Assembly (NCBI GenBank): GCA_003152165.1
Contig: PLZO01000022.1
Location: 2,362-66,361 of the forward strand
Direction: 5' to 3'
Origin: Chloroflexota bacterium
Lineage (GTDB): Bacteria; Chloroflexota; Limnocylindria; Limnocylindrales; CSP1-4
Length of the DNA stretch: 64,000 nt
Positions 7,230 through 42,795 of this stretch are shown here, in pieces (position 1 is the stretch's first letter; every line of letters starts with the position of its first letter). The position numbers and the translations under genes were made by a program. A model generated the notes under the pieces. The model was not told where the DNA came from, made no database searches, and saw nothing but the letters and a program-made list of their open reading frames with translations.

Positions 7230-9378
7230 GCGCCGATCCACCCAGCGCGGGTTCCGGCTGCTCAAGCAGAATCGGCTTCGCCTGCTGAGCGATGGAGCCG
7301 GCGCGATCGAGCCGGACGAGCGCGGATACGGGCTGTATGCCGGCGACACCCGCTTCATCTGCCGGCTGGACCTCCGCGTCGCCGGCCGTCGCCCCACCGC
7401 CGGCGCCGGGTCCGAGGCAATGCTCGGGCCGAGCCAGGTCGATCGGATCGACCTGGTCCTCAGTGGTGCTCGTTCCACACTCCAGCTTCGACGCCGGCGA
7501 GAGCTCGGTGCGAGCCTGGCCGAGCGGCTCACGCTGATTCAGGCTGGTCCGCGACAGACGACCGCCGTCGTGCGCCTCACCATCGGCTTCGATGCCGCCG
7601 ACATCTTCGAGATTCGTGGCTATCGGCGGCGCGTTCGCGGAGAGCTCCTGCCTGTCCGGGCCGACGGTTCACGGGTCCGCTTCGGCTACCTCGGCCGCGA
7701 TTCCCGTCTGCGCACGATGGTCATCGATGTCCGACCGCCCCCGAGCGGGCCGATCTCGACAGGGACGGTCCGCCATGGCCGGGAGGTGACCGCCACAATT
7801 CTGTGGCGCGTGCCCGTGGCCAGCGGACTGCCCGTCCGGCTGGCCTGGCTGGTTCAGCCGGCCGAGGATCCCGTCGAGGACCGGGCGACCGCGTTGGCGG
7901 CGATGGCCGCGCCGATCAGGCCCCTGGTTCGGCCACGCAACCCGGGCCAGTGGCCGGCCAGGCAAGCCGAGATTCGCGTGGACGACCCGATGGTTCAGCG
8001 GGTCCTCGACCGGGCCCTGGACGACCTGGGCGTCCTGTCCGAGGACGGTCCAGGACCAGGCGAACGGTTCGAGGCGGCGGGCCTGCCCTGGTTCGCCGCG
8101 CTCTTTGGCCGCGACGCACTGCTGACGGGTTTCGAGGCGATTGCCTTCCGGCCCGACCTGGTCCTCGGCGCGCTCAAGGTGCTGGCGATTCGTCAAGCCA
8201 CCGGTCGCGAAGGACGCTGGGGTGCGGAGCCCGGTCGGATCCTGCACGAGCTCAGGACCGGCGAGATGGCCCGCCTCGGCGAAGTGCCGTTCGGGCCGTC
8301 GTTCGACAGCGTCGACGCGACGCCGCTGTGGCTGATCATGCTCGGCGAGGTGAGCGACTGGATCGGGGATCCGGCGCTGCTTGATGGTCTCTGGCCGAGT
8401 GCGCTCCGAGCGCTCGACTGGATCGACGCGCGCACGGCTGCGGACCCGGACGGCTTCCTGCGCTACCTGGGCCAGCCGGGCGCATTGGCGAACGAGGGCT
8501 GGAAGGACTCGCCCGATGCGACCCGCGATCGCTCTGGAGCCATCGTTCCACCTCCAATCGCCCTGGCCGAGGTCCAGGGGTACGTCCATGACGCCTGGCG
8601 ACGGATGGCCCGAATGGCGCAGGCCCGCGGCGACTCTGCTCTCGCTCAACGGCTGATGGCCCGCGCCCGGCGGCTCCGCCGACGCTTTGATGCTGCGTTC
8701 TGGATCAACGACCGCCAGACGGTCGCTCTTGCCCTCGGTCGGGACGGTCGCGTTGCCGATGCGATCTCCTCGAACGCCGGGCAGTGCCTGTGGACGGGGA
8801 TCCTCAACGTCTCGTCGGCGACAGCTGTGGCCGGCCGGATCCTCGCTCGCGACATGGATTCGGGCTGGGGGATCCGGACGCTCGGCGCATCCGAGCCGGC
8901 ATTCGACCCGTTCGGCTACCACACGGGATCGGTCTGGCCGCACGATACGGCCCTGATTGCCGGGGGCCTCAAGCAGGCCGGCTTTGACGAGGCTGCACAG
9001 GGCATCGCCGACCGATTGCTGGAAGCTGCCGGCGCGCTCCCGGGCGACCGGCTGCCGGAGCTTATCTCGGGCGACGAGCGGCGGCCCGGGCTCGGACCCG
9101 GGCAGGTTCCGAGGGCCTGCCCCGTGCAGGCCTGGGCCTCGGCCGCGCCGCTCCACTTGATCCGGTCGCTGCTCGGTCTCCAGCCAGATGCGGCCCTCGG
9201 GCGGCTGAGCCTGCAACGGCCGGCCCTGCCGACGGCGATCGGCACGATGCGAATTTCGGGGCTGCGCGTTGGAGGCACCACCCTTGACCTGGGGATCTCC
9301 CGGACGCGGCGAGGGATCCGGGTTCGGACGCTCGGCCCGGAGGGACGCATCCGGGTCGTTGTCACAAGGCGCCCCTGA
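7219..9378 (+). CDS. Glycogen debranching enzyme (GDE_N + amylo-alpha-1,6-glucosidase GDE_C domains)
   Basis: N-terminal YGLYAGDTRFI and later GLPWFAALFGRDALLTGFEA; central (alpha/alpha)6 region. The start, probably TTG/GTG, overlaps the GH13 stop. Confidence 0.8.
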   Translation: MTTERRSTQRGFRLLKQNRLRLLSDGAGAIEPDERGYGLYAGDTRFICRLDLRVAGRRPTAGAGSEAMLGPSQVDRIDLVLSGARSTLQLRRRRELGASLAERLTLIQAGPRQTTAVVRLTIGFDAADIFEIRGYRRRVRGELLPVRADGSRVRFGYLGRDSRLRTMVIDVRPPPSGPISTGTVRHGREVTATILWRVPVASGLPVRLAWLVQPAEDPVEDRATALAAMAAPIRPLVRPRNPGQWPARQAEIRVDDPMVQRVLDRALDDLGVLSEDGPGPGERFEAAGLPWFAALFGRDALLTGFEAIAFRPDLVLGALKVLAIRQATGREGRWGAEPGRILHELRTGEMARLGEVPFGPSFDSVDATPLWLIMLGEVSDWIGDPALLDGLWPSALRALDWIDARTAADPDGFLRYLGQPGALANEGWKDSPDATRDRSGAIVPPPIALAEVQGYVHDAWRRMARMAQARGDSALAQRLMARARRLRRRFDAAFWINDRQTVALALGRDGRVADAISSNAGQCLWTGILNVSSATAVAGRILARDMDSGWGIRTLGASEPAFDPFGYHTGSVWPHDTALIAGGLKQAGFDEAAQGIADRLLEAAGALPGDRLPELISGDERRPGLGPGQVPRACPVQAWASAAPLHLIRSLLGLQPDAALGRLSLQRPALPTAIGTMRISGLRVGGTTLDLGISRTRRGIRVRTLGPEGRIRVVVTRRP

Positions 9379-29112: not shown

Positions 29113-29619
29113 TTAGCCGGAGGGTCCGGCCTGGGGATCGTCCGGATCTCCGCCCCCGACCCCGCCGCCGGCATCGCGCTTCTCGGTGTCCGCCAGCTTG
29201 CGCCGGTTCGTCTCGCGAGTTCTCAGGATCGAGCCGGCTGCCTTCATCGAGTCAACCGTGGGCGGGGGGTTGGCCGCCCGGCGCTGGCGGCCCAGCTCCC
29301 GAGCGGCCTGCCGGGCCGCGGCCCGGGCGGCCGTGCGTGCCCCGATCGTCGCCTCGTAGCCCTGCTCGCTCGGCTGGTAGTAGCGCCGTTCGGCCAGCGC
29401 TTCGGGCAGGTACAGCTGCGCGATGTCGGAGTCCTCGAAGTCGGGCGGATAGCGATAGCCAACGCCATAGCCATAGTGCTTCATGGCCGGATGCCCCGCG
29501 CTGCGCAGGTGGAGCGGGACCGGCAGCGCCCCACTCGCGTCAAGGTCCGCGACGGCCGCCCAGTAGGCGGTCCCGGATCGGTTCGACTTCGGGGCGGTGG
29601 CCAGGTAGGTCGTAGCTTG
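29113..29619 (-). pseudogene. Displaced 3' remnant of rarA (C-terminal ~170 codons, no 5' part)
   Basis: Translation (…TAPKSNRSGTAYWAAVADL…LPVPLHLRSAGHPAMKHYGYGVGYRYPPDFE…QGYEATI…) is about 60% identical to the C-terminus of the intact RarA at 41287-42795. Codon usage matches the host (GC3-rich). Homology stops at about 29620; the upstream 26 codons are unrelated. Confidence 0.7.
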
Positions 29620-29698
29620 CGCCCATGGACATCGTTCGTCGCGTCGATTATCGTGATCCTGGCGACCCCATTCGACCCCGAACTCGAAGGACCTCACG

Positions 29699-31018
29699 AT
29701 GACAACGATACGGCCCGCTGCCTATGTCAGGAAGAGCCATCGCGACGCCGTCTCGGCGACGGCTCAACTAGCGTCCATCCAGGAGCTTGCCATCCGGCAG
29801 GGTGTCACCGCACCGCTGGCGGTCTATGCCGATGTTGGGGTGTCCGGGCGTGCCGGGAAGAGGGGTGTCAAGTCAGAGTGGGGTCGCCTGCGCGATGACA
29901 TCACCGCGGGCTCCATCACCGTCGTCTACGTGACCGCCCTCGACCGTGCCGGTCGCTCACTCCTCGAATGGCTTCAGTTCGTCGAGCTCTGCGTCGCCAA
30001 GGGGGTCGAGGTCCGTGACCAGTCGGGCGTCGATCGAACGTCGGGTGACGCCGAGGACATCGCCACCATCGAGATGATGATGGCGCAACGTGAGGGGCGC
30101 AAAGCCGTCGAACGATCCGCCCGTGGTCGAGCCACGCAGGCCCGCAGGGGGGATGACGTCTACCAGGGCCACCCACCGTACGGGTGGATGCGCGTCAAGG
30201 ACGCCAACGGGCGCATCACGCAGATCGCCAACCCCGCCGAGCCGCTCCAACCCCTCCTAGAGGCCATCAGAGCCACCAAGGGGAACGTCTTGGCCGCGGC
30301 GCGGTTCCTATCCACCTCGGGAGTTCCGACGCGCTCCGGGCGGCCTTGGGACGCTCGGGTGTTGACCCGCGCTCTCGACCGCCAGGGAGTGATCCGGGCA
30401 CGACGCGAGGGCGCACGCCGACGTCGCGGTCCGTCCGACGCGCCGTTGTCGCGGATCGTCGTGTGCCACTGCGGCGCAACGATGACGCCCGAGCGCGATC
30501 GTCGCAACGGCCAATGGCTCGGCCTCGTGTGCTCGGTCGGGCGCAAGGCGGGTCAAGCGTCGCACGGGCGGTACATCGCACGATCGCGGCACGTCATGGA
30601 GTTGCTCAAAGCGTCAATGCGGGTCACCACCCACCACATCGAGCGATCGTCGCCGACCGACACCGCCGCGCAGCGGACCGACCTCGAGGCGAAGCGTCGC
30701 CGACTCGGCATGGCGTTGGCCGATGACGCGATCGGCGAGGACGACTACCGCGTCCGAATGGAGGCCGTCAAACGCGACCTCGCCGAGCTCGATGAGAGCG
30801 TCGCGGGCGAGGGTGAGTGGATCGGATGGACTCACGGTCCGTTGGTCGACTGGACGGTCGATGACGTCGCGCTCGGCGATCGCCTCCGGTCGCTAGTACG
30901 ATCCGTCACGCTCGACACGGACATGATGCCCGTCGCGGCCGACTACCGCGTCCCGTGGTTGCCCGCTGGCGTGTCGCGCTCGCGCCGCTCTACCGAAGAG
31001 AAGCCTTCCCACGCGTGA
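29699..31018 (+). CDS. Large serine recombinase (serine integrase)
   Basis: N-terminal resolvase-type catalytic domain (AAYVRKSHRD…TAQ…, catalytic Ser context), recombinase domain, zinc ribbon (CHCG…C), C-terminal coiled coil. 439 aa. Confidence 0.85.
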   Translation: MTTIRPAAYVRKSHRDAVSATAQLASIQELAIRQGVTAPLAVYADVGVSGRAGKRGVKSEWGRLRDDITAGSITVVYVTALDRAGRSLLEWLQFVELCVAKGVEVRDQSGVDRTSGDAEDIATIEMMMAQREGRKAVERSARGRATQARRGDDVYQGHPPYGWMRVKDANGRITQIANPAEPLQPLLEAIRATKGNVLAAARFLSTSGVPTRSGRPWDARVLTRALDRQGVIRARREGARRRRGPSDAPLSRIVVCHCGATMTPERDRRNGQWLGLVCSVGRKAGQASHGRYIARSRHVMELLKASMRVTTHHIERSSPTDTAAQRTDLEAKRRRLGMALADDAIGEDDYRVRMEAVKRDLAELDESVAGEGEWIGWTHGPLVDWTVDDVALGDRLRSLVRSVTLDTDMMPVAADYRVPWLPAGVSRSRRSTEEKPSHA

Positions 31019-31486
31019 GTGGGTCGGCCGCTCGCCACGCTTCGCCTCGCAATGGGCTCTGCTCTTCACGCGCGCGTTGCTCTGCGGTAGCGATGCAGTG
31101 GGCGTGTGTCGCAACCTGACGCTGCTCGAACTCGATCGCGCGTGCGGCGAACTCCGCATCCGTCTCCGCGGCGCGCGCGGGGATGACCTTGTCGTCTTCC
31201 CGCCGCTCAGCGCGTGCGGGCCACGGTTCAACGGGACCCCACATCGAGCACCACGAGCAATCGTGCCAGTCGGGAGGAACGTCCATGTCGGGAGTCTCGC
31301 ACCTGCCTCGCGCACGCCTCTACGACCTGAAAGTACCGCCGACGAGCCTTCGACCGAGCACGACGTAGAGAAGCGTCGAAACGCTCCCGGAGAGGGCATA
31401 GCGAGGCTCCACGCACGAATCTCGGGTCGAGAATCTGGCACTTTCACGAGAACGGGTGGAAACACGTCTTTGGGCCGTTCTACGAT

Positions 31487-31527
31487 CTAGCTGCGCCTAG
31501 CGCCTCGCTTAGAGTGGCTCTGGTAGA
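31487..31527. repeat. Cluster of phased TAG-containing repeats (CTAGC, CTAGC, TTAGAG, GTAGAG; 10-13 bp spacing) containing the 12-mer TAGAGTGGCTCT
   Basis: The 12-mer recurs at 37450-37461 inside a second cluster (cgcTAGAGtggctctTAGCGcgctccTAGCGtcc, 37447-37479). CTAG is otherwise rare in this high-GC DNA. Both clusters lie inside the island. Confidence 0.45.
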
Positions 31528-31678
31528 GGCGTCCTCCGCGTCACGCTCCCGTGCCAGGAGCGCCCAACATGGCGGGCAAAGGCCGAACCCACTCGCGGCG
31601 CTTCCGGCCATCCAGCGCGCATCGTGATGCGTCCATGGGCGGAGGCACCGCTCGCACGGCGGCGGGCCCGCGTCGCGC

Positions 31679-32128
31679 TCAGCCGACTCCAGCACCGATC
31701 AGACCGCGCGATCGAACGACTTCCACCACGTCCATGCCGTCGTCGGGTGCTGCGGGCGACGCATCGACCGAGCGGAGCACGCCGTCCTCGTCGATCGGAG
31801 GTGACTCCTTCGCCACCCGCGTCGCCTCGCTGTTCCCGCCGGTGAACGTCGACTCGACCGTGACCGGGCGACGCTCTTTGGGTTCGGCGATCGCGTGGAG
31901 CCGGTGCGACGCGAACGCGGTCGACATGGCCTCGTCGGTCCTGCCGCCGATGACCGTTCCGCATGAGCACACAGCGCGACGTTTCGCGCCGTAGCGGACC
32001 TCCGCCACGACATGGCCGACGGCCATCCGCGAGCGGTTGCCTCCGAGCCGCTGGCCTGAATTCCATGAGGAGTGGCCCCTCACCGCGGCACCATGGCCGC
32101 GACGCACGCCGCGAGGATGAAGAGCCAT
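31679..32128 (-). CDS. Hypothetical protein (last gene of the minus-strand coupled operon); start uncertain (ATG 32128 or ATG 32026)
   Basis: ORF follows the upstream gene stop (32151) after 22 nt. No recognisable domain; contains CSCG. Confidence 0.3.
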   Translation of the reverse strand: MALHPRGVRRGHGAAVRGHSSWNSGQRLGGNRSRMAVGHVVAEVRYGAKRRAVCSCGTVIGGRTDEAMSTAFASHRLHAIAEPKERRPVTVESTFTGGNSEATRVAKESPPIDEDGVLRSVDASPAAPDDGMDVVEVVRSRGLIGAGVG

Positions 32129-32150
32129 ACCACGAAGAAGACGATCGTTC

Positions 32151-32330
32151 TCACCGCGTGGTGTCCGCGACGTTCGCCCTGATGCCGTCCTCGACGGCGG
32201 TCTGGACACGGGCGAGGCGGAGTGCTTCGCGACGCAGCGTGACGGCGTCGATCGCCTCCCGCCGCTGTCGCTCACGCTCCCGCTGCGTCGCGGACTTCGC
32301 GTGCGGAACGGCGGTGGCCATGTGGCCCAT
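32151..32330 (-). CDS. Small hypothetical protein (59 aa, Arg/Glu-rich helical)
   Basis: ATG at 32330 overlaps the upstream stop as ATGA (translational coupling). Sequence MGHMATAVPHAKSATQRERERQRREAIDAV…. Confidence 0.4.
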   Translation of the reverse strand: MGHMATAVPHAKSATQRERERQRREAIDAVTLRREALRLARVQTAVEDGIRANVADTTR

Positions 32331-33175
32331 CACCGGACCGTCCCGTCGGGCCGCGTCGCGGTGATCGTGGACCCGGTGGAGCCACGCTCTGACGACTTGG
32401 CCATCCCGGCGGGTTCGACATACTCCTCGCCGACCGCCCACGCCCCCATGGCCGCGGACATCTTCGCCGCGATCGACGTCTCGGCGCGTACCTTGAGCGA
32501 CGCGGTCACGACCTCGGGTCGGCCCGCAGCGAGGGCGGCATCTTCGATCAACTTGAGGACCTGCGTCTGCGACGCGAGGATCGCGCGCTCGTGTTCGATG
32601 GCCGCGGCTTGAGCGCGCGCCTCAGCCTGGACGAACACGCGACGCGCGGGATCAGCCAGATCGTAGTCCATATCGATGCTCTTGACGATGCTTCCCGCCG
32701 TTGCGTCGCCGAGTTGGCTTGCCGCCTGCGCGAGTACCCGTGCCTGCGAGAGCGCGCCGAGGCCGTAGAGGTTGATCGCCCGCTCGGAGAGCGACGCAAC
32801 GCGGTCCTTGTCCACCGTGCCGTTGGCCGTCTTCGCGTCGCGCACGAGCTGCGCGACTTCCGCCCGATCGGACGCGCGACGCGCCTCCTCGGCGGGTGAC
32901 TGGACGCGATCGCGTTCGGTCGCGAGGCCCTTCCGTGCCTCACGGACGATGTAGCCCGTCAAGCGCGACGTGCGCTCACGCGCCACGGCGGCGGCCGTGT
33001 CGAACGTGCCACGCGCGGTGGCCAAGTCGGCATCGAGCGTCTTCGGGTCGATGAGCACGCCCTGTGTCGCGCGCTCGGTGATGCGGATCGCTTGTGAGTT
33101 GATCTTGAGCACGTCCGCGTTGAACGCATCGGCGACGTCTTTCAACGTGTAGGTGGGTACTTCAGTCGGTGGCAT
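32330..33175 (-). CDS. Hypothetical alpha-helical protein (281 aa)
   Basis: ATG at 33175 preceded by gaaggagg at -5. Non-repetitive helical sequence; possible phage structural, scaffold-like or regulatory protein; no motif recognised. Confidence 0.55.
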   Translation of the reverse strand: MPPTEVPTYTLKDVADAFNADVLKINSQAIRITERATQGVLIDPKTLDADLATARGTFDTAAAVARERTSRLTGYIVREARKGLATERDRVQSPAEEARRASDRAEVAQLVRDAKTANGTVDKDRVASLSERAINLYGLGALSQARVLAQAASQLGDATAGSIVKSIDMDYDLADPARRVFVQAEARAQAAAIEHERAILASQTQVLKLIEDAALAAGRPEVVTASLKVRAETSIAAKMSAAMGAWAVGEEYVEPAGMAKSSERGSTGSTITATRPDGTVR

Positions 33176-33329
33176 GTGGGCCTCCTTCGAGGTTGGTGAT
33201 GATCCGATCGAGTACGTCCCGATCGCGCGTGGTGTCGAGCGCCCAAGCCGCCGCCAGGAGACGGATGAGGATCCGCTCCAGCGGTGTGAAGCTCGGTTCG
33301 GTTACTGATGTGCGACGCTTGCTCTTCAT
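33162..33329 (-). CDS. Small hypothetical protein (55 aa)
   Basis: ATG at 33329 overlaps the upstream stop as ATGA, with an aggagg RBS 5 nt upstream. Its stop overlaps the start region of the next gene. Confidence 0.45.
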   Translation of the reverse strand: MKSKRRTSVTEPSFTPLERILIRLLAAAWALDTTRDRDVLDRIITNLEGGPHATD

Positions 33330-33997
33330 GTGTCCTCCTGTGTCCTTAGGTGCTCCTTCACGTCAGGCGACGCGTTGGCCATGCCCGTAGCGTGGTGTTC
33401 CGTGTGCCGCCGGACCTCCGCCCGCGACGCCTCGATCGCCGCGGTCGGCTCCACGTAGTCGACCCACGGCATGAGCGGTAGGCCCAACGTCGCCCGGAGT
33501 GCGTTGGCCGCGTCGAAGCGGGCCCGTGGGTACGGGAGCAGCGCCGTGAAGAGCTGCGCTTCGAGGCCGCTCTCGACGAAGGCCTCCACGGCGATCGCGC
33601 CGGTGTCGCGCGTGTCCGCCGGCGGGGTGCCGATCCGTGCGAGGTCAGATGCCGCTCGTCTCCGCTCGGCGAGGATGCCCAAGCGCACGCCGGGACCGAC
33701 CGAGTCGAGGGGGATGTCCAGTCCGGCGATCACGCTCCGGAGGAGTTCCTCGGCGGTCAGCGGTAGTTCCTTCGCCTGCGTGGCTTCTGTTCGCCTGGGT
33801 GGCTCTTGCGGGCTACCGGTGACCACCGGAACGACATGCCCATTGCGCTTGTGCCGTGCGATCGCGTCCCGGTGGCAGCCGATCATCCGTGCGATCACGA
33901 CAGCGGGTCGACCGGCCAGGATCATGGAGTCGGCCATGGCCCGCTGCGGATTGCTGCAGACGGTACAGCGGCTCCCGATCACGGGTCCCTTGCTCAT
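33326..33997 (-). CDS. Zinc-ribbon + HTH DNA-binding protein (first gene of operon)
   Basis: I place the start at the ATG at 33997 (RBS ggaga at -7). N-terminus CTVCSNPQRAMADSMILAGRPAVVIARMIGCHRDAIARHKRNGH is a CxxC zinc ribbon plus an HTH, resembling phage small terminase/regulator N-termini. Confidence 0.55.
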   Translation of the reverse strand: MSKGPVIGSRCTVCSNPQRAMADSMILAGRPAVVIARMIGCHRDAIARHKRNGHVVPVVTGSPQEPPRRTEATQAKELPLTAEELLRSVIAGLDIPLDSVGPGVRLGILAERRRAASDLARIGTPPADTRDTGAIAVEAFVESGLEAQLFTALLPYPRARFDAANALRATLGLPLMPWVDYVEPTAAIEASRAEVRRHTEHHATGMANASPDVKEHLRTQEDT

Positions 33998-34088
33998 GGT
34001 CGTGTCTCCGGTCGCGCAGACACGACAGCGGTTGCGGTCCGTGCGCGGTGAACTCCCGGCGTGGTAACTTGCGACCCGGAGGTCGCGA

Positions 34089-34122
34089 GTTCTTCGCGAC
34101 GTGACGTGGACACGCGAAGAAC
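34089..34122. promoter_or_regulatory. Inverted repeat gttcttcgcg-N14-cgcgaagaac upstream of the 33997 operon; candidate operator
   Basis: 10-bp perfect inverted repeat flanking acgtgacgtggaca, about 90-125 bp upstream of the operon start. Embedded TCGCGA hexamers. Confidence 0.35.
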
Positions 34123-34139
34123 GCATCTGCGTACAAGCG

Positions 34140-34840
34140 GGTGAGAAGCCGCCTTCACAAACTGCTCCCCGGAAACGACGCCCGCGGGATACACCCCGGG
34201 GGTTGATACACGCCCCCTAGACGGTTGAGAGCACGTGTAAGAGGCACCGGCGGGGGCCGAGCGGCCGTTGCGTACGTCCGTCACGATGTCGCCCCTCTCA
34301 GTGGCAGTGCAGAGCGTGAATATGTATTTATCACAGCGGGGCATGCGACTCGTGGATATGTATTCACGAACGTACCCAACCGACGGCTATGTGTGTGCAC
34401 ACGTACGTCCACGAGGGATCGACTTCCGACAACGGCACCCGCCACCAACCAACGCTTGTAATGCAACCGCGAGGAATACTCGGAGGAACTGCCCCCGCAT
34501 ATCCACACACCCGCGCATGCAAGCGGCGCACCAAAGCGCCTCGAATACCTCGGTCGGCCGTCCACAACACCCGCGGCCCTCTGCACAACGGCCCCGTCCG
34601 TGCACCGAGCCGACACAAGAGCGGCACTCACACGACTCACCGATGCTTCGTGGGTGTATCCGCGGCCCCGAACCACATCGGCCGTCTGAGGGTGACCGGC
34701 ACGAGAGCGAGCAATATACTCAGTGCCGTTCTTTACATGCCCCGCTAATCGACACACGCCGTTGTACTCAAGCGGCCGCTTCCCGTATACGATAGCAACG
34801 TCATTCCGGAGCACTCCGGAGAACGAACCCGAAGGAGATG
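34140..34840. other. About 700-bp non-coding, comparatively AT-rich region with multiple short direct repeats (iteron-like)
   Basis: No credible ORF in any frame. Repeats: GATACAC(G)CCCC x2 (34188-34216); ATATGTATT(TAT)CAC x2 (34319-34366); CGTACGTCC x2 (34270, 34401); ACACCCGCG x2 (34507, 34567). Runs of CA/ACAC. Confidence 0.5.
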
Positions 34841-34841
34841 C

Positions 34842-35054
34842 ATGTTCCCATACACCATCGACTCGAGCCCCACCAAAGCAACCCCGAAGCGAACCGCTCC
34901 GAAGCGGATCTGGGTCCACTCCACACACGCCGTCATGGCCGCCGCGCGACGTTGGGATATGGAGCACATCCCGGCGATCCGAGCCGCCGAGGAAGCTCAC
35001 CCGAGTGTCGGCTTCGAGCGCGACGAATACGGGCCTCTCATCCTCAACTGGTAG
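34842..35054 (+). CDS. Small hypothetical protein (70 aa)
   Basis: ATG preceded by gaaggaga at -5. Sequence MFPYTIDSSPTKATPKRTAPKRIWVH…; no known motif. Confidence 0.5.
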   Translation: MFPYTIDSSPTKATPKRTAPKRIWVHSTHAVMAAARRWDMEHIPAIRAAEEAHPSVGFERDEYGPLILNW

Positions 35055-35164
35055 CCGACCACGATCGTCGTTGGCAGTGGTCAGTGCTAATGGCAGTGGT
35101 GACCACTTCCCGCCGTTGAGACCGGCATTCCATCCGCGCCTCCACGAACACTGACCACTACCAC

Positions 35165-35210
35165 CCCCCCTATTTATATAGGGGATAGGGGTGGTAGTGG
35201 TAGTGGTGAG
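35165..35210. terminator. Strong hairpin (13-bp perfect stem ccactaccacccc / ggggtggtagtgg, AT-rich loop ccctatttatataggggata) between convergent genes; putative bidirectional terminator
   Basis: Perfect 13-bp inverted repeat with a 20-nt loop, located between the 3' ends of 34842..35054(+) and 35231..35902(-). No U-tract, as is common in high-GC genomes. Confidence 0.45.
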
Positions 35211-35230
35211 GCGTGGTGCCCACAAGTGAC

Positions 35231-35902
35231 TCATACGTCCTCGGGGTCGGCGTCGGGATCGACACGGAAGTACAATCGCTTCTTCGCTCCGCCGACACTT
35301 GTCGCGACGTAGACGACTCGTAGTTTCCCGTCTTCAACGAGTTCCGCGACGCGCTTCCGGACCGTCTCGCGAGACCGCCCACTGACCTCAACGAGCGACG
35401 CCATGTCGAGCCCCTCACCGTCGGTCGGGATCGCGTCGAGGAAGCTCTCCCACTCGTCTTCCGAAGCGACGTTCAACGCCTTCGTGGCAGCGGCCTCGGC
35501 GCGGAAGACGTTGTAGAGGCACGTGTAGACGGCTTCGGTGTACTTGAACCCGCTTTGAGTGAACCGCTCACCGTCGCGTACAACGCACTTGGAGTCATCC
35601 CCGTACGTGTCCGACGGTAAGCCGACACGAGCGAGCTCTTTGGCCGCCCACACGTCGCGAGCGGTACGCGCTTCCTGGTAGGACGGGAACGTGCCGTCCT
35701 GTTTCGACCAACGGTTCTTCCCGTGGATGAGCGGGTCGAATACGTCGCGGAAGTCGTACGCGCTCGTGGCCTTCGGGCGGTCGGGATCATCGAGCGCCGT
35801 GCGAATATCCACGGGAAGCTCTTCGCGACGCAACGGGCGTGGTGGTTGAGGCCGTTGGGCGTAGTGCGTGTCGGTGCGTGCGTTCCAGTCGATGGGGCTC
35901 AC
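35231..35902 (-). CDS. Hypothetical protein with a C-terminal winged-helix-like segment (223 aa)
   Basis: GTG start overlaps the stop of the upstream XRE gene (GTGA). C-terminus …LVEVSGRSRETVRKRVAELVEDGKLRVVYV… is wHTH-like; the N-terminal 150 aa are unassigned. Confidence 0.5.
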   Translation of the reverse strand: MSPIDWNARTDTHYAQRPQPPRPLRREELPVDIRTALDDPDRPKATSAYDFRDVFDPLIHGKNRWSKQDGTFPSYQEARTARDVWAAKELARVGLPSDTYGDDSKCVVRDGERFTQSGFKYTEAVYTCLYNVFRAEAAATKALNVASEDEWESFLDAIPTDGEGLDMASLVEVSGRSRETVRKRVAELVEDGKLRVVYVATSVGGAKKRLYFRVDPDADPEDV

Positions 35903-36330
35903 GACGTCACGCTCTCGGCGACGCGGTCGGCGAGGAACGCGTCTACCTCCGCCACCGAATGGAGGCGATTGTCGTCGTAGGGCGGGTCAAGGAAGATGTC
36001 CCAAGACGCTCCTTCGACAGTACTCTGGCCACCGCCATCAACGCCGATGCCAGCGACGCGGAGTCGGTCTTCTTGGGAGTGTCGCTCCACGAGCGACGCA
36101 TCGACACCGGTCACGCTCTCGGCGATCGCCATCAGCCGCGACGCGCGGCCAGGTTCATTCCGTGGTGACCCGTGTCGTTCGACGATGGCCACGAGTGATT
36201 GTGAGAGTCCACCCAATTGCGCGAGCTCACTTTGGTTCAGTCCCGCCCGTAAGCGGGCCCGACGTAGTGCGACACCTTCGGTTGGGCGTGGTGCGCGTTC
36301 GGTGACGTAGCGTGGTCCTATTCGTGTCAT
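35899..36330 (-). CDS. XRE-family HTH protein with an uncharacterised C-terminal domain (repressor-like)
   Basis: ATG at 36330 with aaggaagg RBS. HTH LRRARLRAGLNQSELAQLGGLSQSLVAIVERHG; C-terminal region contains DIFLDPPYDDN. Divergent from the 36818 gene across a 470-bp region. Confidence 0.6.
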   Translation of the reverse strand: MTRIGPRYVTERAPRPTEGVALRRARLRAGLNQSELAQLGGLSQSLVAIVERHGSPRNEPGRASRLMAIAESVTGVDASLVERHSQEDRLRVAGIGVDGGGQSTVEGASWDIFLDPPYDDNRLHSVAEVDAFLADRVAESVTS

Positions 36331-36493
36331 TCGGTACCTTCCTTTCACTCATTCGTGCGAGTTGGTGGCGTGTAGAGAAGTCGATCGTTCAGTAGTATTC
36401 CCGAATGACAAGGCGGGTTCACGGTGACCCGACGATCACCCATTGGTAGCGGGGTGTTCTCGGGAGTCCAACCCGGTCTTCCGCCATTCTTCC

Positions 36494-36717
36494 GAACGTT
36501 CACGTTCGACTGCTTGGGTGATACGACTATTGTAACGCATGCTCGCCGGCTATGCGCACCTATAACCCACCGGGTGACGTCGCCAGACCACTCAGTGACG
36601 TTGCCCATATGAAGTCGATCGGATACGCGGTGATGTCATCAGCGCGCCTCTCCGTCGTTTCCTAGACGGTGTCGCCTGAATGCGCCATTGAAGTCGGCGA
36701 AGTTGCGTTTCACGTTC
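36494..36717. promoter_or_regulatory. Divergent promoter/operator region with repeated TTCACGTTC motifs
   Basis: gaACGTTCACGTTCgac at 36494-36510 (overlapping palindrome GAACGTTC) and a second TTCACGTTC at 36709-36717; a TTCACGG at about 36416. Lies between the XRE gene and the 36818 gene. Confidence 0.4.
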
Positions 36718-36817
36718 AAGTTGGCTATGGACAATCTGCGCGATCAGCGCGAAGGTTGACGTTGTCGTCGATCGACGATCACCAACGAACGACCGCGAGG
36801 TCGAAAGGGACTTTTCA

Positions 36818-37312
36818 ATGACACGGATCGCAACCGCCAAGGACGCCGCCGCCGCCATCAAGGTCATTCGGGCCCCGAAGGCCGCGAAGGTCGCGCCGAT
36901 CGTCGACACCGCCGCGAAGATCGTCGGCCAGTGCGTTGCATCGCCAACGCGAGCCCCACACATCAAGGTTCGTTGCACGAACCCGATCGGCACCATCAAT
37001 CACGTCCTTTGCGACGAACACGCCGAACTTCTCAAGGCCAACGCGAAGGCCGCCAAGGCGTCCGCGCCAAAGAGCGCGAAGGCGAAGCCCGTCAAGCCGA
37101 AGTCGGCGGGAACGTCAAAGGCTTCCACGAAGGCACCGAAGATCGTCACCGCTCCCGAACTCCCGACGCACGCCGCGAAGGTCGCCCGCACGTCGATCAT
37201 GCAACCCGCGCTCGCTCGCATCCCGCGACCGAGCACGTGGACGCCAACCGTCGAGCAACCCGCCACGTACGTCAACCTCGTGACGCCAGGCGGACCCGAA
37301 CCGACCGAATAG
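36818..37312 (+). CDS. Basic Ala/Lys-rich protein with a Cys/His cluster and a histone-H1/HU-tail-like repeat region
   Basis: RBS gaaaggga. Contains C-x11-C-x10-C-x2-H (CVASPTRAPHIKVRCTNPIGTINHVLCDEH), then KANAKAAKASAPKSAKAKPVKPKSAGTSKASTKAPK. Confidence 0.5.
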   Translation: MTRIATAKDAAAAIKVIRAPKAAKVAPIVDTAAKIVGQCVASPTRAPHIKVRCTNPIGTINHVLCDEHAELLKANAKAAKASAPKSAKAKPVKPKSAGTSKASTKAPKIVTAPELPTHAAKVARTSIMQPALARIPRPSTWTPTVEQPATYVNLVTPGGPEPTE

Positions 37313-37733
37313 TCGTCGATCGACGATCGACCCCCACGAGGCCCGACCAACATCGGGCCTCGTTCCATGTCCGGCGCCGCCACCCGTCCACTCAGAGGCG
37401 ATGCCCAAGCGAAGTCGCGAAACTACCCGACTTCACCGGCTCCGTTCGCTAGAGTGGCTCTTAGCGCGCTCCTAGCGTCCAGGCGCGCGACTCCGAGCAA
37501 ACGCCGCCACCACGGGACTGTACTCACGAAGGAACTCCTCTCCGCAGGCCCGATCTCGGCGTCGTCCGACCAGCGCACTCTGGGGCGTCGCGGTCCCTAT
37601 GTACACGGCGCGCCCGCGCGCGTATCGTGGCCTTGCGCGTTTGCGCAAGGACGCAACCATGGAGGACCACAGTGGATCGCCGCCACCTGGCCCGTGACAG
37701 GCGGGCCGTCACGACGCCCGGCATACTCAGACC

Positions 37734-38768
37734 ATGACCGACGAGCGACCACCTGTTGAGCCAGTCCTACAGACCGAACTCGGGGCGCTCTACGCGGGAG
37801 ACTGCGTCCCGCTCATGCGGGCGCTGCCTGCGGGATCGGTCGACCTTTTCTTCGCCGATCCACCCTTCAACCTCGGCAAGGACTACGGGGTCGCCGCGCC
37901 GGACAACCACACCGAAGACCGCTATCTGAAGTGGTGCTTCGAGTGGCTGTCCGAAGGAGTCCGGCTGCTCAAACCGGGCGGGTCGATGTTCGTCTACAAC
38001 CTCCCGAAGTGGTCGATCCCCATTGGCGAGTTCCTACGGACTCGGTTGACCTTCCGGCACTGGATCACGGTCGAGATCAAGTTCGGGCTTCCGATCACGG
38101 GTCGCCTCTACCCGAGCCACTACGGCTTGCTCTACTTCGTGAAGGGGAAGCGGCCGAACCGCTTCGACCCGCCGCGCCTCGCGATGCCGACCTGCCGGCA
38201 CTGCGGCGGCGAGATCCCGGACTACGGCGGCTACAAGGACAAGATGAACCCGAAGGGGCTCAACCTCTCCGACGTGTGGAGCGACATCGCGCCGGTCCGC
38301 CACTCGCGGTTCAAGAATCGGGAAGCGAACGAACTGTCGCTCAAGCTGATGGATCGAGTCCTCGACATCGGCTCGGCGCCTGGCGACATCGTCCTGGACC
38401 CCTTCGGCGGAGCCGGGACCACCTACGTCGCGGCCGAACTCAAGCACCGCCGCTGGATCGGGATGGAGTTGAGCACCGCTGACGCTATCGTGGATCGGTT
38501 CGCCGACCTCAGCCAGGATCGGGCGAACCTTCGCCGATACCGGTCGGGGATCAACACCCTGTTCACGCCCGAGGCGTTGGCCCTGCGCGCCCGGTCGGGC
38601 ATGGGCAGGAACAACCACCGGTACAACATCGAAGGGGCCGCGCCCGACGCTCGACTCAACGGAGAGGTCCACCAACTCTCGCTCGACACCACCGAGACAG
38701 TCGAGTCGATCGAGGGTGGGCTAACGAAGAGCCCGGCCGTCGGTTCCCTTCCGGATGAGCGGCACTAA
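37734..38768 (+). CDS. DNA methyltransferase, beta-class (N4-cytosine or N6-adenine), Type II R-M
   Basis: Motif IV DLFFADPPFN precedes motif I DPFGGAGTT (circularly permuted beta order). Contains a Cys cluster CRHCGGE. Confidence 0.8.
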   Translation: MTDERPPVEPVLQTELGALYAGDCVPLMRALPAGSVDLFFADPPFNLGKDYGVAAPDNHTEDRYLKWCFEWLSEGVRLLKPGGSMFVYNLPKWSIPIGEFLRTRLTFRHWITVEIKFGLPITGRLYPSHYGLLYFVKGKRPNRFDPPRLAMPTCRHCGGEIPDYGGYKDKMNPKGLNLSDVWSDIAPVRHSRFKNREANELSLKLMDRVLDIGSAPGDIVLDPFGGAGTTYVAAELKHRRWIGMELSTADAIVDRFADLSQDRANLRRYRSGINTLFTPEALALRARSGMGRNNHRYNIEGAAPDARLNGEVHQLSLDTTETVESIEGGLTKSPAVGSLPDERH

Positions 38769-39446
38769 CGGATCGGTCGCGTCGTAGCTGACGACAATCA
38801 CGGCCAAGCGGCCAGGAACGTCGACTCGACCGTAGACCTCGCGGTACAGCGATAGCTCGCGCCAGTTGCCGGTCCGGTCGGTGAGGTAGCGGTAGAGATC
38901 GCCATCGGGGAGGCACAAGACGGCCTGCTGCGCGAGACCACGCATCAAGGCGACGGTCAGTCGGTTGAGTGACCGATGCGAGCTGCTGATATTGCCGGTC
39001 TCCCACTCGACCAACGTGGACCAGGCGCTCGCCAGCGCCTTGCCCGCGTCGAAGCCGCCTCGACGGCCAAAGAGCGGGATCTCCATCGTCCAGCCACGCG
39101 CCTTCAGGTCGAGGGCGAATGCTTGCTTGATCGGCACGACACCGTTGCCTTGTCGCTTCGGGTTGATCGTGAACTTGCCCGATCCGGGCGGCCAGTGGAT
39201 CGTCGGGATGACCAACCTGATCTGGGCGAGGTCGGCGTCGGCAACCGCGATCTCACCGGGGTCAGTGAGTCGATCGAACAGGACGACCTCTTCCGCGATC
39301 AGCACGGACCGAGAGTACAACGCGTCACCCCCAATGGGCCAAACGCGGCGCTCGTCCACGAGACCGTCATGGCGACTGACCCAACAAGTGGTCTGGCTCG
39401 CCTCGCATAGCGGAGAGGATGCCAATTCGGACACCCCCACGTGCAA
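38721..39446 (-). CDS. Putative Type II restriction endonuclease (convergent partner of the MTase)
   Basis: 241 aa, convergent with the MTase and overlapping its 3' end by about 48 nt. Possible PD…(D/E)xK elements (TDPGE … ALDLKA). No family-level match recognisable by eye. Confidence 0.4.
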   Translation of the reverse strand: MHVGVSELASSPLCEASQTTCWVSRHDGLVDERRVWPIGGDALYSRSVLIAEEVVLFDRLTDPGEIAVADADLAQIRLVIPTIHWPPGSGKFTINPKRQGNGVVPIKQAFALDLKARGWTMEIPLFGRRGGFDAGKALASAWSTLVEWETGNISSSHRSLNRLTVALMRGLAQQAVLCLPDGDLYRYLTDRTGNWRELSLYREVYGRVDVPGRLAVIVVSYDATDPLVPLIRKGTDGRALR

Positions 39447-39781
39447 GTGGGCGCCTAATGCCGTGGGAATAAGCGTGCGGAGCTATTTGTCGTAATAGCC
39501 CGATGTCTATTGAGCAACGCACCGGTCGCGTAATCGAGCCGAATCTTGCCACGATCGCGCACAAACATAGGCTTCCATATGTAACGCGGCGCCACGGATG
39601 CCGCATATCCACCTGGCTGGTATGTCGAATGGTGACGGACTCGTTGGCTGGGGGAGATCCGGATACGCGAGCCAGGACGATTGCCGTAACGATGTCATGG
39701 AGACGGACTTGACAGGCCGGGCATTCCGTGCAAACTCAACATCGTCAACTTCGGCAGTCAACGATGGAGGACGGATTAGCG

Positions 39782-40375
39782 ATGAACCCCGACGACGTGA
39801 CCCATATTCTCGCAGGCGCGGTCAAGGCAGTGACCGACGCCAAGGTGCCGCCGGACCTGGCACCGGTTGCCTTCGAAAAGGCGATCGACATGCTCGCCGG
39901 CCCGCGGCCGGTGGCAGCTTCGACAACGGCGACATTGGGGGTGCCAACCTCGGTCGCCGCGCCGACCACGCCCACCGGGTCAGCGATCGACCGCTTGGCG
40001 ACCCGCCTTCATCTTTCGCACGAGGTTGTCGAAGCCGTCTTTACGGAGAACGGAGATGAGCTCGCGATCAGCGTGCCGCCCGATCGGTTGGCGAAGGCCA
40101 AGAGTGCAGGCGCCCGTGAGATCGCCCTGCTCGTCGCGGCCGCGCGCCAGAGCAGCTCGGATGATCCGACAACGACCGACCAGATCAGGCGGGCTGTCGA
40201 GGATTACAACCGATTTGACGGGCCGAATTTCGCCTCGTCTCTTTCGCCGATGAAGGGAACATTCCTCGTCGCCGGTCCCTCGCGCTCGCGAACCTTCAAG
40301 TTGACGAAGCCTGGATGGACGGCTGCCGCCTCGCTGGTCGGCCGGTTGGGCGCCCCTGACAAGTCAGCATCGTGA
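39782..40375 (+). CDS. Hypothetical protein (198 aa), first gene of a 2-gene cassette
   Basis: ATG with ggagga RBS. Helical N-terminus, Ala/Thr/Pro-rich linker, C-terminal domain. Its stop overlaps the next start (ATGA). Confidence 0.5.
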   Translation: MNPDDVTHILAGAVKAVTDAKVPPDLAPVAFEKAIDMLAGPRPVAASTTATLGVPTSVAAPTTPTGSAIDRLATRLHLSHEVVEAVFTENGDELAISVPPDRLAKAKSAGAREIALLVAAARQSSSDDPTTTDQIRRAVEDYNRFDGPNFASSLSPMKGTFLVAGPSRSRTFKLTKPGWTAAASLVGRLGAPDKSAS

Positions 40376-41193
40376 CCACGGGGCGAGCCCGAACGGCCTC
40401 TCACTCGCCGGTCCCAGCTGCGAGCACCGGGGGTCCGGCCGCGGTGCTCGGCGGCCTGCCCCTCGGCATCAGGCAGGAGCTCATCGACGAGTTGAACAAG
40501 ATCGAGCGCCATTTCCGCGAGGGCCGCTGGGAACCTGCGGAACTCGACGGCGGGCGACTGTGCGAGATCGTCTACTCGATCGTCCGCGGCGAACTGGACG
40601 GCAAGATCCCGTCCAAGGCGTCCAAGCCGACCGACCTTGTTGGGGCGATCCGGGCCCTCGAGGGCGTGCCAGCATCGACCGGACCGCGATCGTTCCGGAT
40701 CACGATCCCGCGCGCCCTTCTCGGGATCGTGGACGTCCGGAACGATCGTGACGTTGGCCATATCGGCGGCGAGGTCTCCTCTAACCACATGGATGCCTCC
40801 TATGTCCTTGCCGGTGCCAAGTGGCTGGTCGCCGAGCTTGTCCGCTACTACCACCAGGTCGACACCGCGACCGCCACCACGTTTGTTGAAGCGTTGATCG
40901 AACGGGACACCCCAGCTGTTTGGCAGGTCGCGGGCACGAAGCGACTACTCCTGCATGGCGTCTCGATGCCTGATCGGACCCTCGTGGCCCTCGATTCGAC
41001 CGCCGGACCGGTCCATACCACGGACCTCCGGGAGTGGACGGGCTACTCCAACGCGACGCTGTTCCGGCAGAGCATCCTGGTCGAGCTGCATCGCGCCGAT
41101 CTCATTCACTACGACCGCAAGACTGGCCTTGTGTATATCTCGCCGCTCGGTGCCAAACGTGTCGCCGACCACCTACACCAGTGGGTCGCCTAG
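40372..41193 (+). CDS. Hypothetical protein with a possible HEPN-like R-x6-H motif and a C-terminal winged-helix-like region (273 aa)
   Basis: …ITIPRALLGIVDVRNDRDVGHIGGEVSSNHMDASYVLAGAKWLVAELVRYYH… then …ELHRADLIHYDRKTGLVYISPLGAKRV. Translationally coupled to the upstream gene. Located in the island beside the R-M system. Confidence 0.5.
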   Translation: MTTGRARTASHSPVPAASTGGPAAVLGGLPLGIRQELIDELNKIERHFREGRWEPAELDGGRLCEIVYSIVRGELDGKIPSKASKPTDLVGAIRALEGVPASTGPRSFRITIPRALLGIVDVRNDRDVGHIGGEVSSNHMDASYVLAGAKWLVAELVRYYHQVDTATATTFVEALIERDTPAVWQVAGTKRLLLHGVSMPDRTLVALDSTAGPVHTTDLREWTGYSNATLFRQSILVELHRADLIHYDRKTGLVYISPLGAKRVADHLHQWVA

Positions 41194-41286
41194 ATCTTGG
41201 TCAATACGATCAATTAGGCGTCGATCCCAGGTGACAACGCTGTGGTACTCGGCGCGTTCCTTGCCGCCGGCTCCACGATCCCTCCC

Positions 41287-42795
41287 TCAAGTTCCAGCGT
41301 CGCGCTTCTGCGTCTCCGCGAGCTTCTTGCGGCTCTCGTTGTGGGCGTTCAGCCCGTCGCTCATCGACCCCATCGGGTCGAGGCCCGGCCGATCCTGCTT
41401 CCGACGCTGGCGACCAGCTTCCCGAACAGCTTGCCGAGCACCATCTAATACAGCCATCCGCGCGCGGACCGTCGCTTCGTAGCCCTGGTCGCCCGGCACG
41501 TAGTACCGCTGCTCCACGAGGGCATCGGGAAGGTACTGCTGCGAGATGTCGTCGCCCTCGAACTCGTGGGGGTTGCGGTAGCCGACACCGTCGCCGTATT
41601 GCTTCATGGCCGGATGACCCGCCGTCCGGAGATGCGCCGGGACCGGCAGCGATCCGTACTTCAACACGTCAGCCATCGCCGCGGCATAGGCGCGACCTAC
41701 CGCGTCCGACTTGGGCGACGACGAAATATGGACGGTCGCCTGGGCGAGGGCGTACTGGGCCTCGGGCAGGCCCACGTGGTCAAGGGCCTGGGCCGCGGCC
41801 ACCGCCACCTGGAGCGCCCGGGGATCGGCGTTGCCGACGTCCTCGGAGGCGCTGATGATCAGCCGCCGGACGATGAACCGGGGATCCTCGCCCGCCGCGA
41901 TCATCGTGGCCAGCCAGTACAGCGCGCCATCGGGATCGTTGCCCCGCAGGCTCTTGATGAAAGCGGAGGCCGTGTCGTAATGGCCGTCGCCGGCCCGGTC
42001 GTAGGCAAGGACCCGTTGCTGGGCGGCGGCCTCGACTTCGGCCAGTCGGGGCGCGACCCGACCCTCCAAATCGCGCACGCCGGCCGATTCGGCCAGGGCG
42101 GTGGCGCCTTCAAGCACATTGAGCGCCTGGCGGGCGTCCCCGCCGGCCAGTCCGACGAGGTGGGCGAAAGCGTCGTCCGGCAGGCTCACCCCACCACTAG
42201 GGCCGAGCGCGCCGGCCAGTCCCCGGTCGGGATCATCGATCGCACGGCGGACCACGGTTCGTACGTCACCGTCGGACAGCGGCTCCAGGCGCCAGACCCG
42301 CAGACGCGACAGGAGCGCGCTGTTCAACTCGAAATAGGGGTTCTCGGTCGTGGCCCCGATCAGGATGATCGTGCCGTCCTCGACGTGGGGCAGTAAGCCG
42401 TCCTGCTGGGATTTGTTGAAGCGGTGGATCTCGTCGATGAACAGAACGCTGCGCGCTCCGTTGAGGCTCAGCCGCTCACGCGCCGTCGCCACCGTCGAAC
42501 GGATCTCGGCGACGCCGCTCATCACCGCCGACAGGCTCATGAAGTCAGCCCCGATCGCGTCGGCGAGGAGCCGGGCCAGGCTGGTCTTGCCCGTCCCCGG
42601 CGGGCCCCACAGCAGGATCGACCCGAGGTAGCCGCGTTCGACCGAGCGGCGCAGAGGACCCTCCTCCCCGACGAGTTGAGCCTGGCCCACGTACTCGGCC
42701 AGCGTTCGCGGGCGCATCCGGGCGGCCAGGGGCTGGACGCCCGGCGGGGGCTGAAAGAGGGCGGCCTGGTCTGGAGCGGGACGGCGCGTCGGCAC
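41287..42795 (-). CDS. rarA: Replication-associated recombination protein A (AAA+ ATPase RarA/MgsA); chimeric, with the 3' ~450 nt supplied by the integrated element
   Basis: Walker A GPPGTGKTS, Walker B LFIDEIHRF, MgsA C-terminal domain (…LRTAGHPAMKQYGDGVGYRNPHEF…). Codon usage shifts to AT-ending codons downstream of …LAQAT (about 41735). Confidence 0.85.
   Translation of the reverse strand: MPTRRPAPDQAALFQPPPGVQPLAARMRPRTLAEYVGQAQLVGEEGPLRRSVERGYLGSILLWGPPGTGKTSLARLLADAIGADFMSLSAVMSGVAEIRSTVATARERLSLNGARSVLFIDEIHRFNKSQQDGLLPHVEDGTIILIGATTENPYFELNSALLSRLRVWRLEPLSDGDVRTVVRRAIDDPDRGLAGALGPSGGVSLPDDAFAHLVGLAGGDARQALNVLEGATALAESAGVRDLEGRVAPRLAEVEAAAQQRVLAYDRAGDGHYDTASAFIKSLRGNDPDGALYWLATMIAAGEDPRFIVRRLIISASEDVGNADPRALQVAVAAAQALDHVGLPEAQYALAQATVHISSSPKSDAVGRAYAAAMADVLKYGSLPVPAHLRTAGHPAMKQYGDGVGYRNPHEFEGDDISQQYLPDALVEQRYYVPGDQGYEATVRARMAVLDGARQAVREAGRQRRKQDRPGLDPMGSMSDGLNAHNESRKKLAETQKRDAGT

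Follow-up and report, generated by a model that had tools for sequence, protein, structure and literature searches.

A long divergent noncoding region next to a conserved iteron array in a small rarA-integrated element of a Chloroflexota chromosome

SaPI origins contain 6 to 12 iterons immediately downstream of an open reading frame (ORF) whose C-terminal winged helix recognizes them, and their AT-rich center is flanked on each side by at least 2 iterons running in opposite directions (PMC9371898). SaPI iterons are 5 to 6 nt long, and the initiator is a self-loading helicase with a primase nearby. Iteron theta plasmid origins of the Rep_3/RepA type also place multicopy short repeats beside the gene of a winged-helix protein, but as regular direct arrays of 17- to 22-bp units (PMC4980987). 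Divergent promoter/operator regions of phages and integrative elements, such as lysogeny switches, are a third point of reference, and the classic switches span about 100 to 350 bp. Here we compare with these systems an 844-bp noncoding region, called the gap below, that separates the leftward gene o223a from a rightward 70-codon ORF in a small element integrated in the rarA gene of a Chloroflexota chromosome. Positions are those of the 64-kb stretch of DNA that was analyzed as a whole (the window), and the features are collected in Table 1.

A first-pass annotation had taken the gap for a possible replication origin, a complex operator region, or a noncoding RNA (ncRNA) locus. We consider it probable, with some reserve, that the gap is instead the divergent regulatory and leader region of the element and that it is neither an origin nor an iteron array.

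The gap and its position in related elements

The left border of the gap is the ATG of the minus-strand gene o223a at 33,997, a start that is fixed because the CxxC at residues 11 to 14 is conserved among homologues. The right border is the ATG of the 70-codon ORF at 34,842, which follows a ribosome-binding site. The third-position GC periodicity of the flanking genes is absent from all frames of the gap, and the long ORFs that cross it have no match in Pfam or PHROG. Searches by tblastn against the gap with 1,238 ORFs from seven related loci gave noise and nothing believable, and the small ORFs of the relatives L089 and L094, described below, likewise gave only noise. In these respects the first-pass annotation, which had reported a noncoding divergent region of about 840 bp without a credible ORF in any frame, was correct. 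Pseudogene remnants in the gap were considered as well and were dropped because tblastn with the ORFs of the relatives returned noise. A public gene caller (ENA contig, L092) draws a 317-amino-acid ORF (34,281-35,234, minus strand) that reads antisense across the gap as well as across the 70-codon ORF and the iteron array beyond it. Lacking both a GC signal by codon position and any domain match, this ORF is probably spurious.

The same locus could be recognized in two independent and very distant relatives, one represented by two GenBank assemblies (L089/L090) and the other by JGI metagenome contigs (L094/L097), with protein identities of 27% to 33%. Both relatives keep the gene order of the window, from the o223a-like gene through the gap, a small ORF preceded by a strong ribosome-binding site, and the iteron array to the o223b-like gene. 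The gap measures 335 bp in L089, 530 bp in L094, and 844 bp in the window, and the three gaps cannot be aligned and have no k-mers in common beyond chance. Among these three elements the position of the gap is conserved, but its sequence is not. The small ORF of L089 is a homologue of that of L094 (40% identity, E 3e-14), and the 70-codon ORF of the window has no detectable homology to either of them.

A position between divergent transcription units that is conserved among relatives is what would be expected of a divergent promoter/operator region. As in lysogeny-switch-type regions, the gap heads two divergent transcription units, is flanked by the gene of a helix-turn-helix (HTH) DNA-binding protein (o223a), holds a few short inverted and direct repeats together with a local GC minimum, and has kept its place in related elements. 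Its candidate promoter and operator sites amount to one weak sigma-70-like site (0.5 expected), one marginal 14-nt repeat pair, and one marginal 10-bp inverted repeat. The likeness has limits: the gap is far longer than the classic switches, it lacks a recognizable repeated operator set, and no sequence conservation was detected among the gaps of the three elements. The flanking protein also differs from CI/Cro-type proteins, since o223a combines CxxC...HxxxxH with an HTH and is similar to a protein whose gene lies close to that of the large terminase in an archaeal virus. The operator region suggested by the first-pass annotation survives only in the ordinary sense of a region between divergent genes that keeps its place in three elements and holds a few candidate sites.

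Repeats, composition, and leader signals within the gap

All of the repeats listed in the first-pass annotation are present in the gap, each family in 2 copies only. Judged against dinucleotide-preserving shuffles, these direct repeats do not exceed chance. There are 5 repeated exact 9-mers versus 2.8±2.1 in the shuffles (p≈0.19), the longest exact direct repeat is 9 nt versus 9.5 expected, the highest 7-mer count is 3 versus 2.9 expected, and Tandem Repeats Finder reports nothing within the gap. No repeat unit reaches 3 or more clustered copies beyond chance, and none of the repeats is conserved in the gaps of L089 and L094. Inverted 9-mers number 11 versus 4.2±2.7 in the shuffles (p≈0.02). 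A distant-mode blastn search with 33,300-35,300 found no match among plasmids and phages. An 11-bp inverted repeat (34,335/34,736) had raised the idea of a miniature inverted-repeat transposable element, which was dropped because no second copy of the gap occurs in the window or in 100 loci.

Two local features are marginal when taken one by one. The AT-rich pair at 34,315 and 34,351 falls where the GC content of the gap is lowest, has palindromic outer ends (CGTGAATA/TATTCACG), and is a candidate core of divergent promoters or operators. The perfect 10-bp inverted repeat upstream of o223a is a candidate operator or leader hairpin; a hairpin-type inverted repeat as good as this one arises in 8% of shuffles (p≈0.08), and its fold z-score is only -0.9 to -1.1.

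The first-pass annotation had likened these repeats to an iteron array marking a replication origin at 34,000-34,840. In an origin reading of the gap, or of part of it, the DnaA-box-like sites (ATATCCACA and 3 copies of GATACAC) would accompany an AT-rich unwinding patch (TGAATATGTATTTATCAC), and we regard this as very improbable. The only DnaA-box-like site in the gap, ATATCCACA at 34,499, matches at 8 of 9 positions and has a partial inverted copy at 34,352; all 3 GATACAC sites of the 64-kb window fall in the gap, and the lowest-GC 40-mers (0.43-0.45) are at about 34,295. DnaA-box matches with 1 mismatch nevertheless number 2 in the whole window versus 2.2 expected, GATACAC was picked by eye and stays within the local 7-mer expectation, and the AT-rich patch is single and only about 16 nt long. 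The gap has no multicopy iterons, nothing in it is conserved in the relatives, and its GC-skew polarity is that produced by divergent genes and not that produced by an origin. It shows none of the features of theta plasmid origins, and a far better candidate lies 215 bp away. The proposal of an array or origin in this interval is not supported.

The GC content of the gap is mildly low (0.622, where the element has 0.652 and the host DNA 0.691), with a 100-nt minimum of 0.52 at 34,301-34,400, and its right half (34,401-34,841) is CA-rich on the plus strand, with a GC skew of -0.19 and an AT skew of +0.25. The low GC and the CA-rich runs noticed in the first-pass annotation are both borne out. 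At about 34,300-34,400 the strand skew flips, and because this flip coincides with the GC minimum and the AT-rich pair, we place the presumptive divergent promoter zone there.

Under this reading, transcription to the left and to the right would start within the gap, most likely in this AT-richest patch with its CGTG(A/G)ATATGTATT pair. The leftward transcript would have a leader of about 300 nt into o223a, ending in a hairpin that may sequester the ribosome-binding site. The 3' arm of the predicted hairpin (CGGAGACACGAC) holds GGAG one base before the o223a ATG, and L094 has an analogous hairpin (1,201-1,229) over GAGGG, with a folding energy of -22.9 kcal/mol and a z-score of -2.3. The rightward transcript would have a CA-rich leader into the 70-codon ORF, of up to about 450 nt, or of about 120 nt if the GTGACC-17-TATACT promoter is used. 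The remaining length of the gap would be mostly poorly constrained spacer, possibly former coding DNA.

Several points weigh against a divergent regulatory and leader region. A length of 844 bp is long for the control region of a 12-kb element and exceeds the gaps of the relatives by some 300 to 500 bp, and the comparison rests on three independent elements only. The promoters and leaders are ones that we infer; the single sigma-70-like site is weak and the promoter rules of Chloroflexota are poorly known, and the hairpin over the ribosome-binding site is present in 2 of the 3 elements, L089 being the one without it. In addition, stop codons in the gap are mildly depleted (14 and 15, versus 21±3.3 expected), with open stretches of 184 and 186 codons (p≈0.08), and the CA skew of the right half resembles that of the plus-strand genes of the element and is absent from the gaps of the relatives. 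The stop depletion and the skew are together a hint of decayed coding DNA, or of a specific RNA, and not of plain spacer.

Decayed coding DNA would mean that the gap consists largely of the remains of one or more lost genes and that only short stretches beside the flanking genes are functional. We think this possible, at odds well below those of a regulatory and leader region. It would account for the stop depletion, for the long open stretches on both strands, and for a right half with C over G and A over T, as in the plus-strand genes. It would also fit the 2.5-fold variation in gap length across syntenic elements and the coding density of the element, which is only about 78% in our own ORF tally. 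The related element L086, in addition, has two extra genes between a putative o223a-position ORF (174 amino acids, assigned by position only) and the rightward genes. The depletion amounts to only about 2 standard deviations, however, and the coding analysis above found no residual codon periodicity, no Pfam or PHROG match, and no believable tblastn match to any ORF of the seven related loci.

The alternative of a specific RNA is less probable again, and we regard it as unlikely. Here the gap would encode a regulatory ncRNA that controls the small ORF, the origin module, or o223a, and the candidates are a CA-rich rightward RNA of about 450 nt and a short RNA around 34,315-34,368. The strand-specific CA bias over 34,401-34,841 is strong, the stretch is a long noncoding one within a compact element, and the plus-strand RNA at 34,315-34,368 is predicted to form a hairpin of -23.6 kcal/mol (z -3.2). 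That z-score comes from a hand-picked window, however, and sliding 120-nt folds on both strands give no z below -2.6 inside the gap. No Rfam model reaches its gathering score anywhere in the window. At E≤1, one miRNA model and no other matches within the gap, at chance level (E 0.56), and the remaining matches, to generic hairpin (miRNA) models, fall on a palindrome that lies outside it. An intrinsic terminator was looked for and not found, and neither the sequence nor the skew of the gap is conserved in the gaps of the relatives. The ncRNA proposed in the first-pass annotation therefore gains no positive support from these searches, and a divergent regulatory and leader region remains the reading that we prefer.

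Table 1. Coordinates of the gap, its candidate signals, the iteron module, and the integrated element in the window
Feature	Coordinates	Strand	Basis or description
Gap: 844-bp noncoding divergent intergenic region, from o223a (leftward) to the 70-codon ORF (rightward)	33998..34841	.	
Hairpin in o223a leader, 12-bp arms (predicted)	33999..34026	-	-20.4 kcal/mol, z -2.3
Perfect 10-bp inverted repeat GTTCTTCGCG-N14-CGCGAAGAAC	34089..34122	.	92-125 nt upstream of o223a start
AT-rich pair CGTG(A/G)ATATGTATT, copies at 34,315 and 34,351	34315..34368	.	13/14 identical, 36 nt apart, p≈0.03 versus shuffles
Sigma-70-like promoter match GTGACC-17-TATACT	34692..34720	+	about 120 nt upstream of 70-codon ORF; 1 versus 0.5 expected, weak
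70-codon ORF	34842..35054	+	ribosome-binding site GAAGGAG; codon-position GC 0.60/0.52/0.73; corresponds by position to the small ORFs of the relatives L089 and L094
Iteron array, GG(C/T/A)AGTGGT present six times in plus and minus orientation	35055..35230	.	about 215 bp right of the gap
o223b, 223 amino acids, C-terminal winged helix (predicted)	35231..35902	-	AlphaFold model, Foldseek; stop codon abuts array
o149, weak XRE-type HTH regulator-like ORF	35899..36348	-	PADLOC, PHROG; immediately upstream of o223b, same operon
o223a, 223 amino acids, N-terminal CxxC...HxxxxH plus HTH	33326..33997	-	phrog_664, HTH_29; first gene of leftward operon
Integrated element, about 12.1 kb, approximate ends	29620..41745	.	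split rarA, empty site in L004, lower GC than outside
Large serine recombinase (integrase), left end of element	29699..31018	+	Resolvase domain 1.4e-19; phrog_95 integrase 3e-42
Displaced original rarA 3' end	29113..29620	-	MgsA_C match; 54% amino acid identity to current 3' end
Element-borne replacement rarA 3' end, keeps rarA full length	41287..41745	-	comparison of the two rarA 3' ends

The iteron array to the right of the gap

Iterons do exist in this element, as the first-pass annotation had supposed, but they lie in a conserved array outside the interval to which that annotation had assigned them. The six copies in the window, at 35,073(+), 35,092(+), 35,102(-), 35,154(-), 35,193(+), and 35,199(+), surround the palindrome ACCACTACCACCCC...TATTTATATA...GGGGTGGTAGTGGT. 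The array has 5 repeated 9-mers versus 0.11 in shuffles and 9 inverted 9-mers versus 0.34, its fold z-scores range from -3.4 to -6.0, and 5 of the 6 exact matches to the iteron motif in the 64-kb window are inside it. In the array of L094 (1,982-2,185), TGGC(A/G)AGTGGT occurs seven times about a palindrome that is perfect over arms of 16 bp, and in that of L089 (5,190-5,400), TGGCCAGTG(G/C)T occurs ten times; in both of these elements every iteron copy of the locus falls within the array. The three elements thus have in common the core TGGC-N0-1-AGTGGT, 6 to 10 copies of it, and a central palindrome. The repeat array is real, conserved, and highly nonrandom. The gaps of the window, L089, and L094 contain no copy of the iteron with up to 1 mismatch, and the idea that iterons in the gaps act as autoregulatory sites was dropped for this reason.

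The layout of the array is also conserved. In all three elements it fills the interval bounded by the stop codons of the small ORF and the o223b-like gene, with a minus-oriented copy on the left of its center and a plus-oriented copy on the right. The innermost copies are at 35,154(-) and 35,193(+) around TATTTATATA in the window, at 2,044(-) and 2,102(+) in L094, and at 5,240(-) and 5,276(+) in L089. The center is clearly AT-rich in the window only.

This layout mirrors that of SaPI/PICI origins in several ways. The iterons, six to ten in number, lie immediately 3' of the ORF of a predicted winged-helix protein, the center is AT-rich or palindromic, there are iterons on both sides of it with the innermost copies in opposite directions, and the element that holds the array is small and integrative and has relatives with Prim-Pol and AAA_25 genes. 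The functional repeat site of the element would then be this array and not the gap, presumably bound by o223b, which like the SaPI initiator appears from its structural model to end in a winged-helix domain. By analogy, the array most likely serves as a SaPI-type origin, in which iterons directly 3' of the initiator gene flank an AT-rich center. Centromere, packaging-site, or operator roles for the array are possible as well.

The differences from SaPI are also substantial. The 223-amino-acid o223b has no ATPase/helicase or primase domain, and domain scans found no AAA or primase gene in the element of the window; among its relatives, AAA_25 is present in L085 and L091, the former of which has Prim-Pol and a terminase-N gene besides. 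The iteron core, at 9 to 11 nt, is longer than that of SaPI, the host belongs to the Chloroflexota, and the integrase is a serine recombinase. A packaging or helper-phage link would be conjecture for this element. Because o223b is without the ATPase/helicase part and the element is without a primase, we describe the array as origin-like with a SaPI-style layout and do not call it a member of the SaPI family.

Iteron theta plasmid origins offer a second comparison. They resemble the array in placing multicopy short repeats beside a winged-helix protein gene; in the array, however, the copies run in both orientations around a palindrome and are not regular direct repeats. A Rep domain, whether Rep_3, RepA_N, or any other, was not detected, and a DnaA-box cluster is missing.

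The presumed iteron-binding protein is o223b. Its AlphaFold model has a mean predicted local distance difference test score (pLDDT) of 78.5, which exceeds 90 over residues ~151 to 220, where the topology is helix-helix-strand-strand. Foldseek retrieves only generic winged-helix DNA-binding regulators, with probabilities of about 1.0 and E values all above 0.01. No match to o223b was found in Pfam, NCBIfam, PHROG, or PDB, nor among plasmid and phage translations, and a search of viral contigs found no relatives of o223b, o281, or the integrase. The family is very rare, with 19 matches among 1.84 billion cluster representatives, and a profile search with it retrieved 3 proteins only, all on short contigs. 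Its conserved motifs are an N-terminal LDDPxRP and a C-terminal RGGKPKKVY. A degenerate DNA pattern for RAMLDDPxRP matched 7 loci, of which the true relatives are L094/L097 only; of the others, four appear from their sequence to be AraC-type regulators and one is a chance match. The preceding gene of the operon, o149, matches capH/Control_protein in PADLOC (E 1e-4 to 3e-3) and transcriptional regulator/repressor families in PHROG (E 1.5e-3 to 3.6e-3).

Taken alone, the gap is an ordinary long control region and matters little. The modest gains from this locus are the conserved iteron module and the family of rarA-targeting elements to which it belongs. The module mirrors SaPI origins in its layout, yet the protein encoded next to it lacks a helicase. 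Should the array prove to be an origin, it would represent a new type of initiator in a phylum with almost no characterized mobile-element biology, and it would provide a candidate replicon for genetic tools.

The rarA-targeting element and its family

The window is a piece of a Limnocylindria-like Chloroflexota chromosome with 68% GC, whose chromosomal genes encode FtsW, PBP, a MoxR-type ATPase, a transglutaminase-like protein, SerA, and a UvrD-type helicase. Its RarA is 71% to 75% identical to RarA from metagenome-assembled genomes (MAGs) of Chloroflexota and Candidatus Limnocylindrales. The rarA gene is on the minus strand and is split, with a full-length copy at 41,287-42,795 and a second, separate C-terminal fragment at 29,113-29,697 (MgsA_C positions 63-164). 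The two rarA 3' ends have 54% amino acid identity and about 75% DNA identity. In a related MAG contig (L004) the site is empty, and the aminotransferase and serA genes, which in the window lie to the left of 29,100, come directly after rarA. Because rarA adjoins these genes directly in L004, the roughly 12.1 kb between about 29,620 and 41,745 are an insertion. A recombinase at one end, a split target, and an empty site in relatives are together what is expected of a serine-recombinase element that targets rarA.

Homologous recombinases with 47% to 62% identity adjoin a rarA (MgsA_C) fragment in 4 other contigs (L083, L084, L086, and L090). Because these integrases stand beside rarA fragments, the sequences define a family of rarA-targeting elements in Limnocylindria-type Chloroflexota, ranging from 4 to more than 12 kb, each with its own replacement rarA 3' end. 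We found nothing relevant in the literature on serine integrases that target rarA. A guess of ATGGAC as the attL/attR core was dropped because the rarA reconstructed from it is out of frame. The contigs with an identical integrase are 100% and 99.99% identical to the window and so provide no variation to compare.

The cargo of the element includes a restriction-modification pair (37,734-39,446) made up of an N4/N6 DNA methyltransferase on the plus strand and a BamHI-family endonuclease on the minus strand, with overlapping 3' ends. The relatives carry other cargo of this kind, namely, other methyltransferases in L089 and L091 and a PvuII-like enzyme in L091. The remaining ORFs of the element received no family assignment in scans of Pfam, PHROG, and other libraries. 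In L086, repeated palindromes (TGAAACGCGTTTCA) occur at 8,728-8,805, in or near a minus-strand ORF of its rarA-targeting element.

A related integrase (49% identity) also heads an element that lies away from rarA, at 10,001-21,332 of L085 (ERZ25039495 contig_2514). Besides the genes named above, this element has an Endonuclease_7 gene and weak homologues of o281 and o198. Its content (Prim-Pol, AAA_25, Endonuclease_7, and terminase-N) suggests that the element of the window has phage-like or satellite-like relatives.

The protein o223a has a connection to viruses of its own. It matches phrog_664 "DNA binding protein" (E 0.0047) and HTH_29 (E 0.044), its residues C11, C14, H49, and H54 are conserved, and it has homologues in L089, L094, and L091. 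Its N terminus shares 35% identity with gp04 of Methanoculleus virus L4768/Blf4 (NC_074642.1, 685-1,245), an unexpected link between a bacterial element and an archaeal virus. The gene for gp04 lies three genes upstream of the large terminase, with a methylase in between, and the likeness is a hint that o223a might have a packaging-related DNA-binding role. The homology search with o223a retrieved only the identical protein, carried by short JGI contigs of the same population, and no relatives were found in genome contigs. Scans of the o223a family against PDB profiles and Pfam gave weak HTH hints only.

It is conceivable, though we give it little credence, that o223a, the gap, the small ORF, the array, and o223b together form the replication or packaging core of an undescribed group of Limnocylindria elements that enter rarA by a serine integrase and are possibly phage satellites; the gap of this member, unusually long and CA-rich, would then encode a leader or regulatory RNA that links induction to the firing of a SaPI-like iteron origin without a helicase.

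The element contains a second long divergent noncoding gap of 469 bp (36,349-36,817), located between the operon of the XRE-like o149 and o223b and the rightward gene o164. It has the lowest GC of the element (0.56) and carries several 11-nt repeats, for example, GAAGTCGATCG in 2 to 3 copies. This second gap may be the actual regulatory switch of the element.

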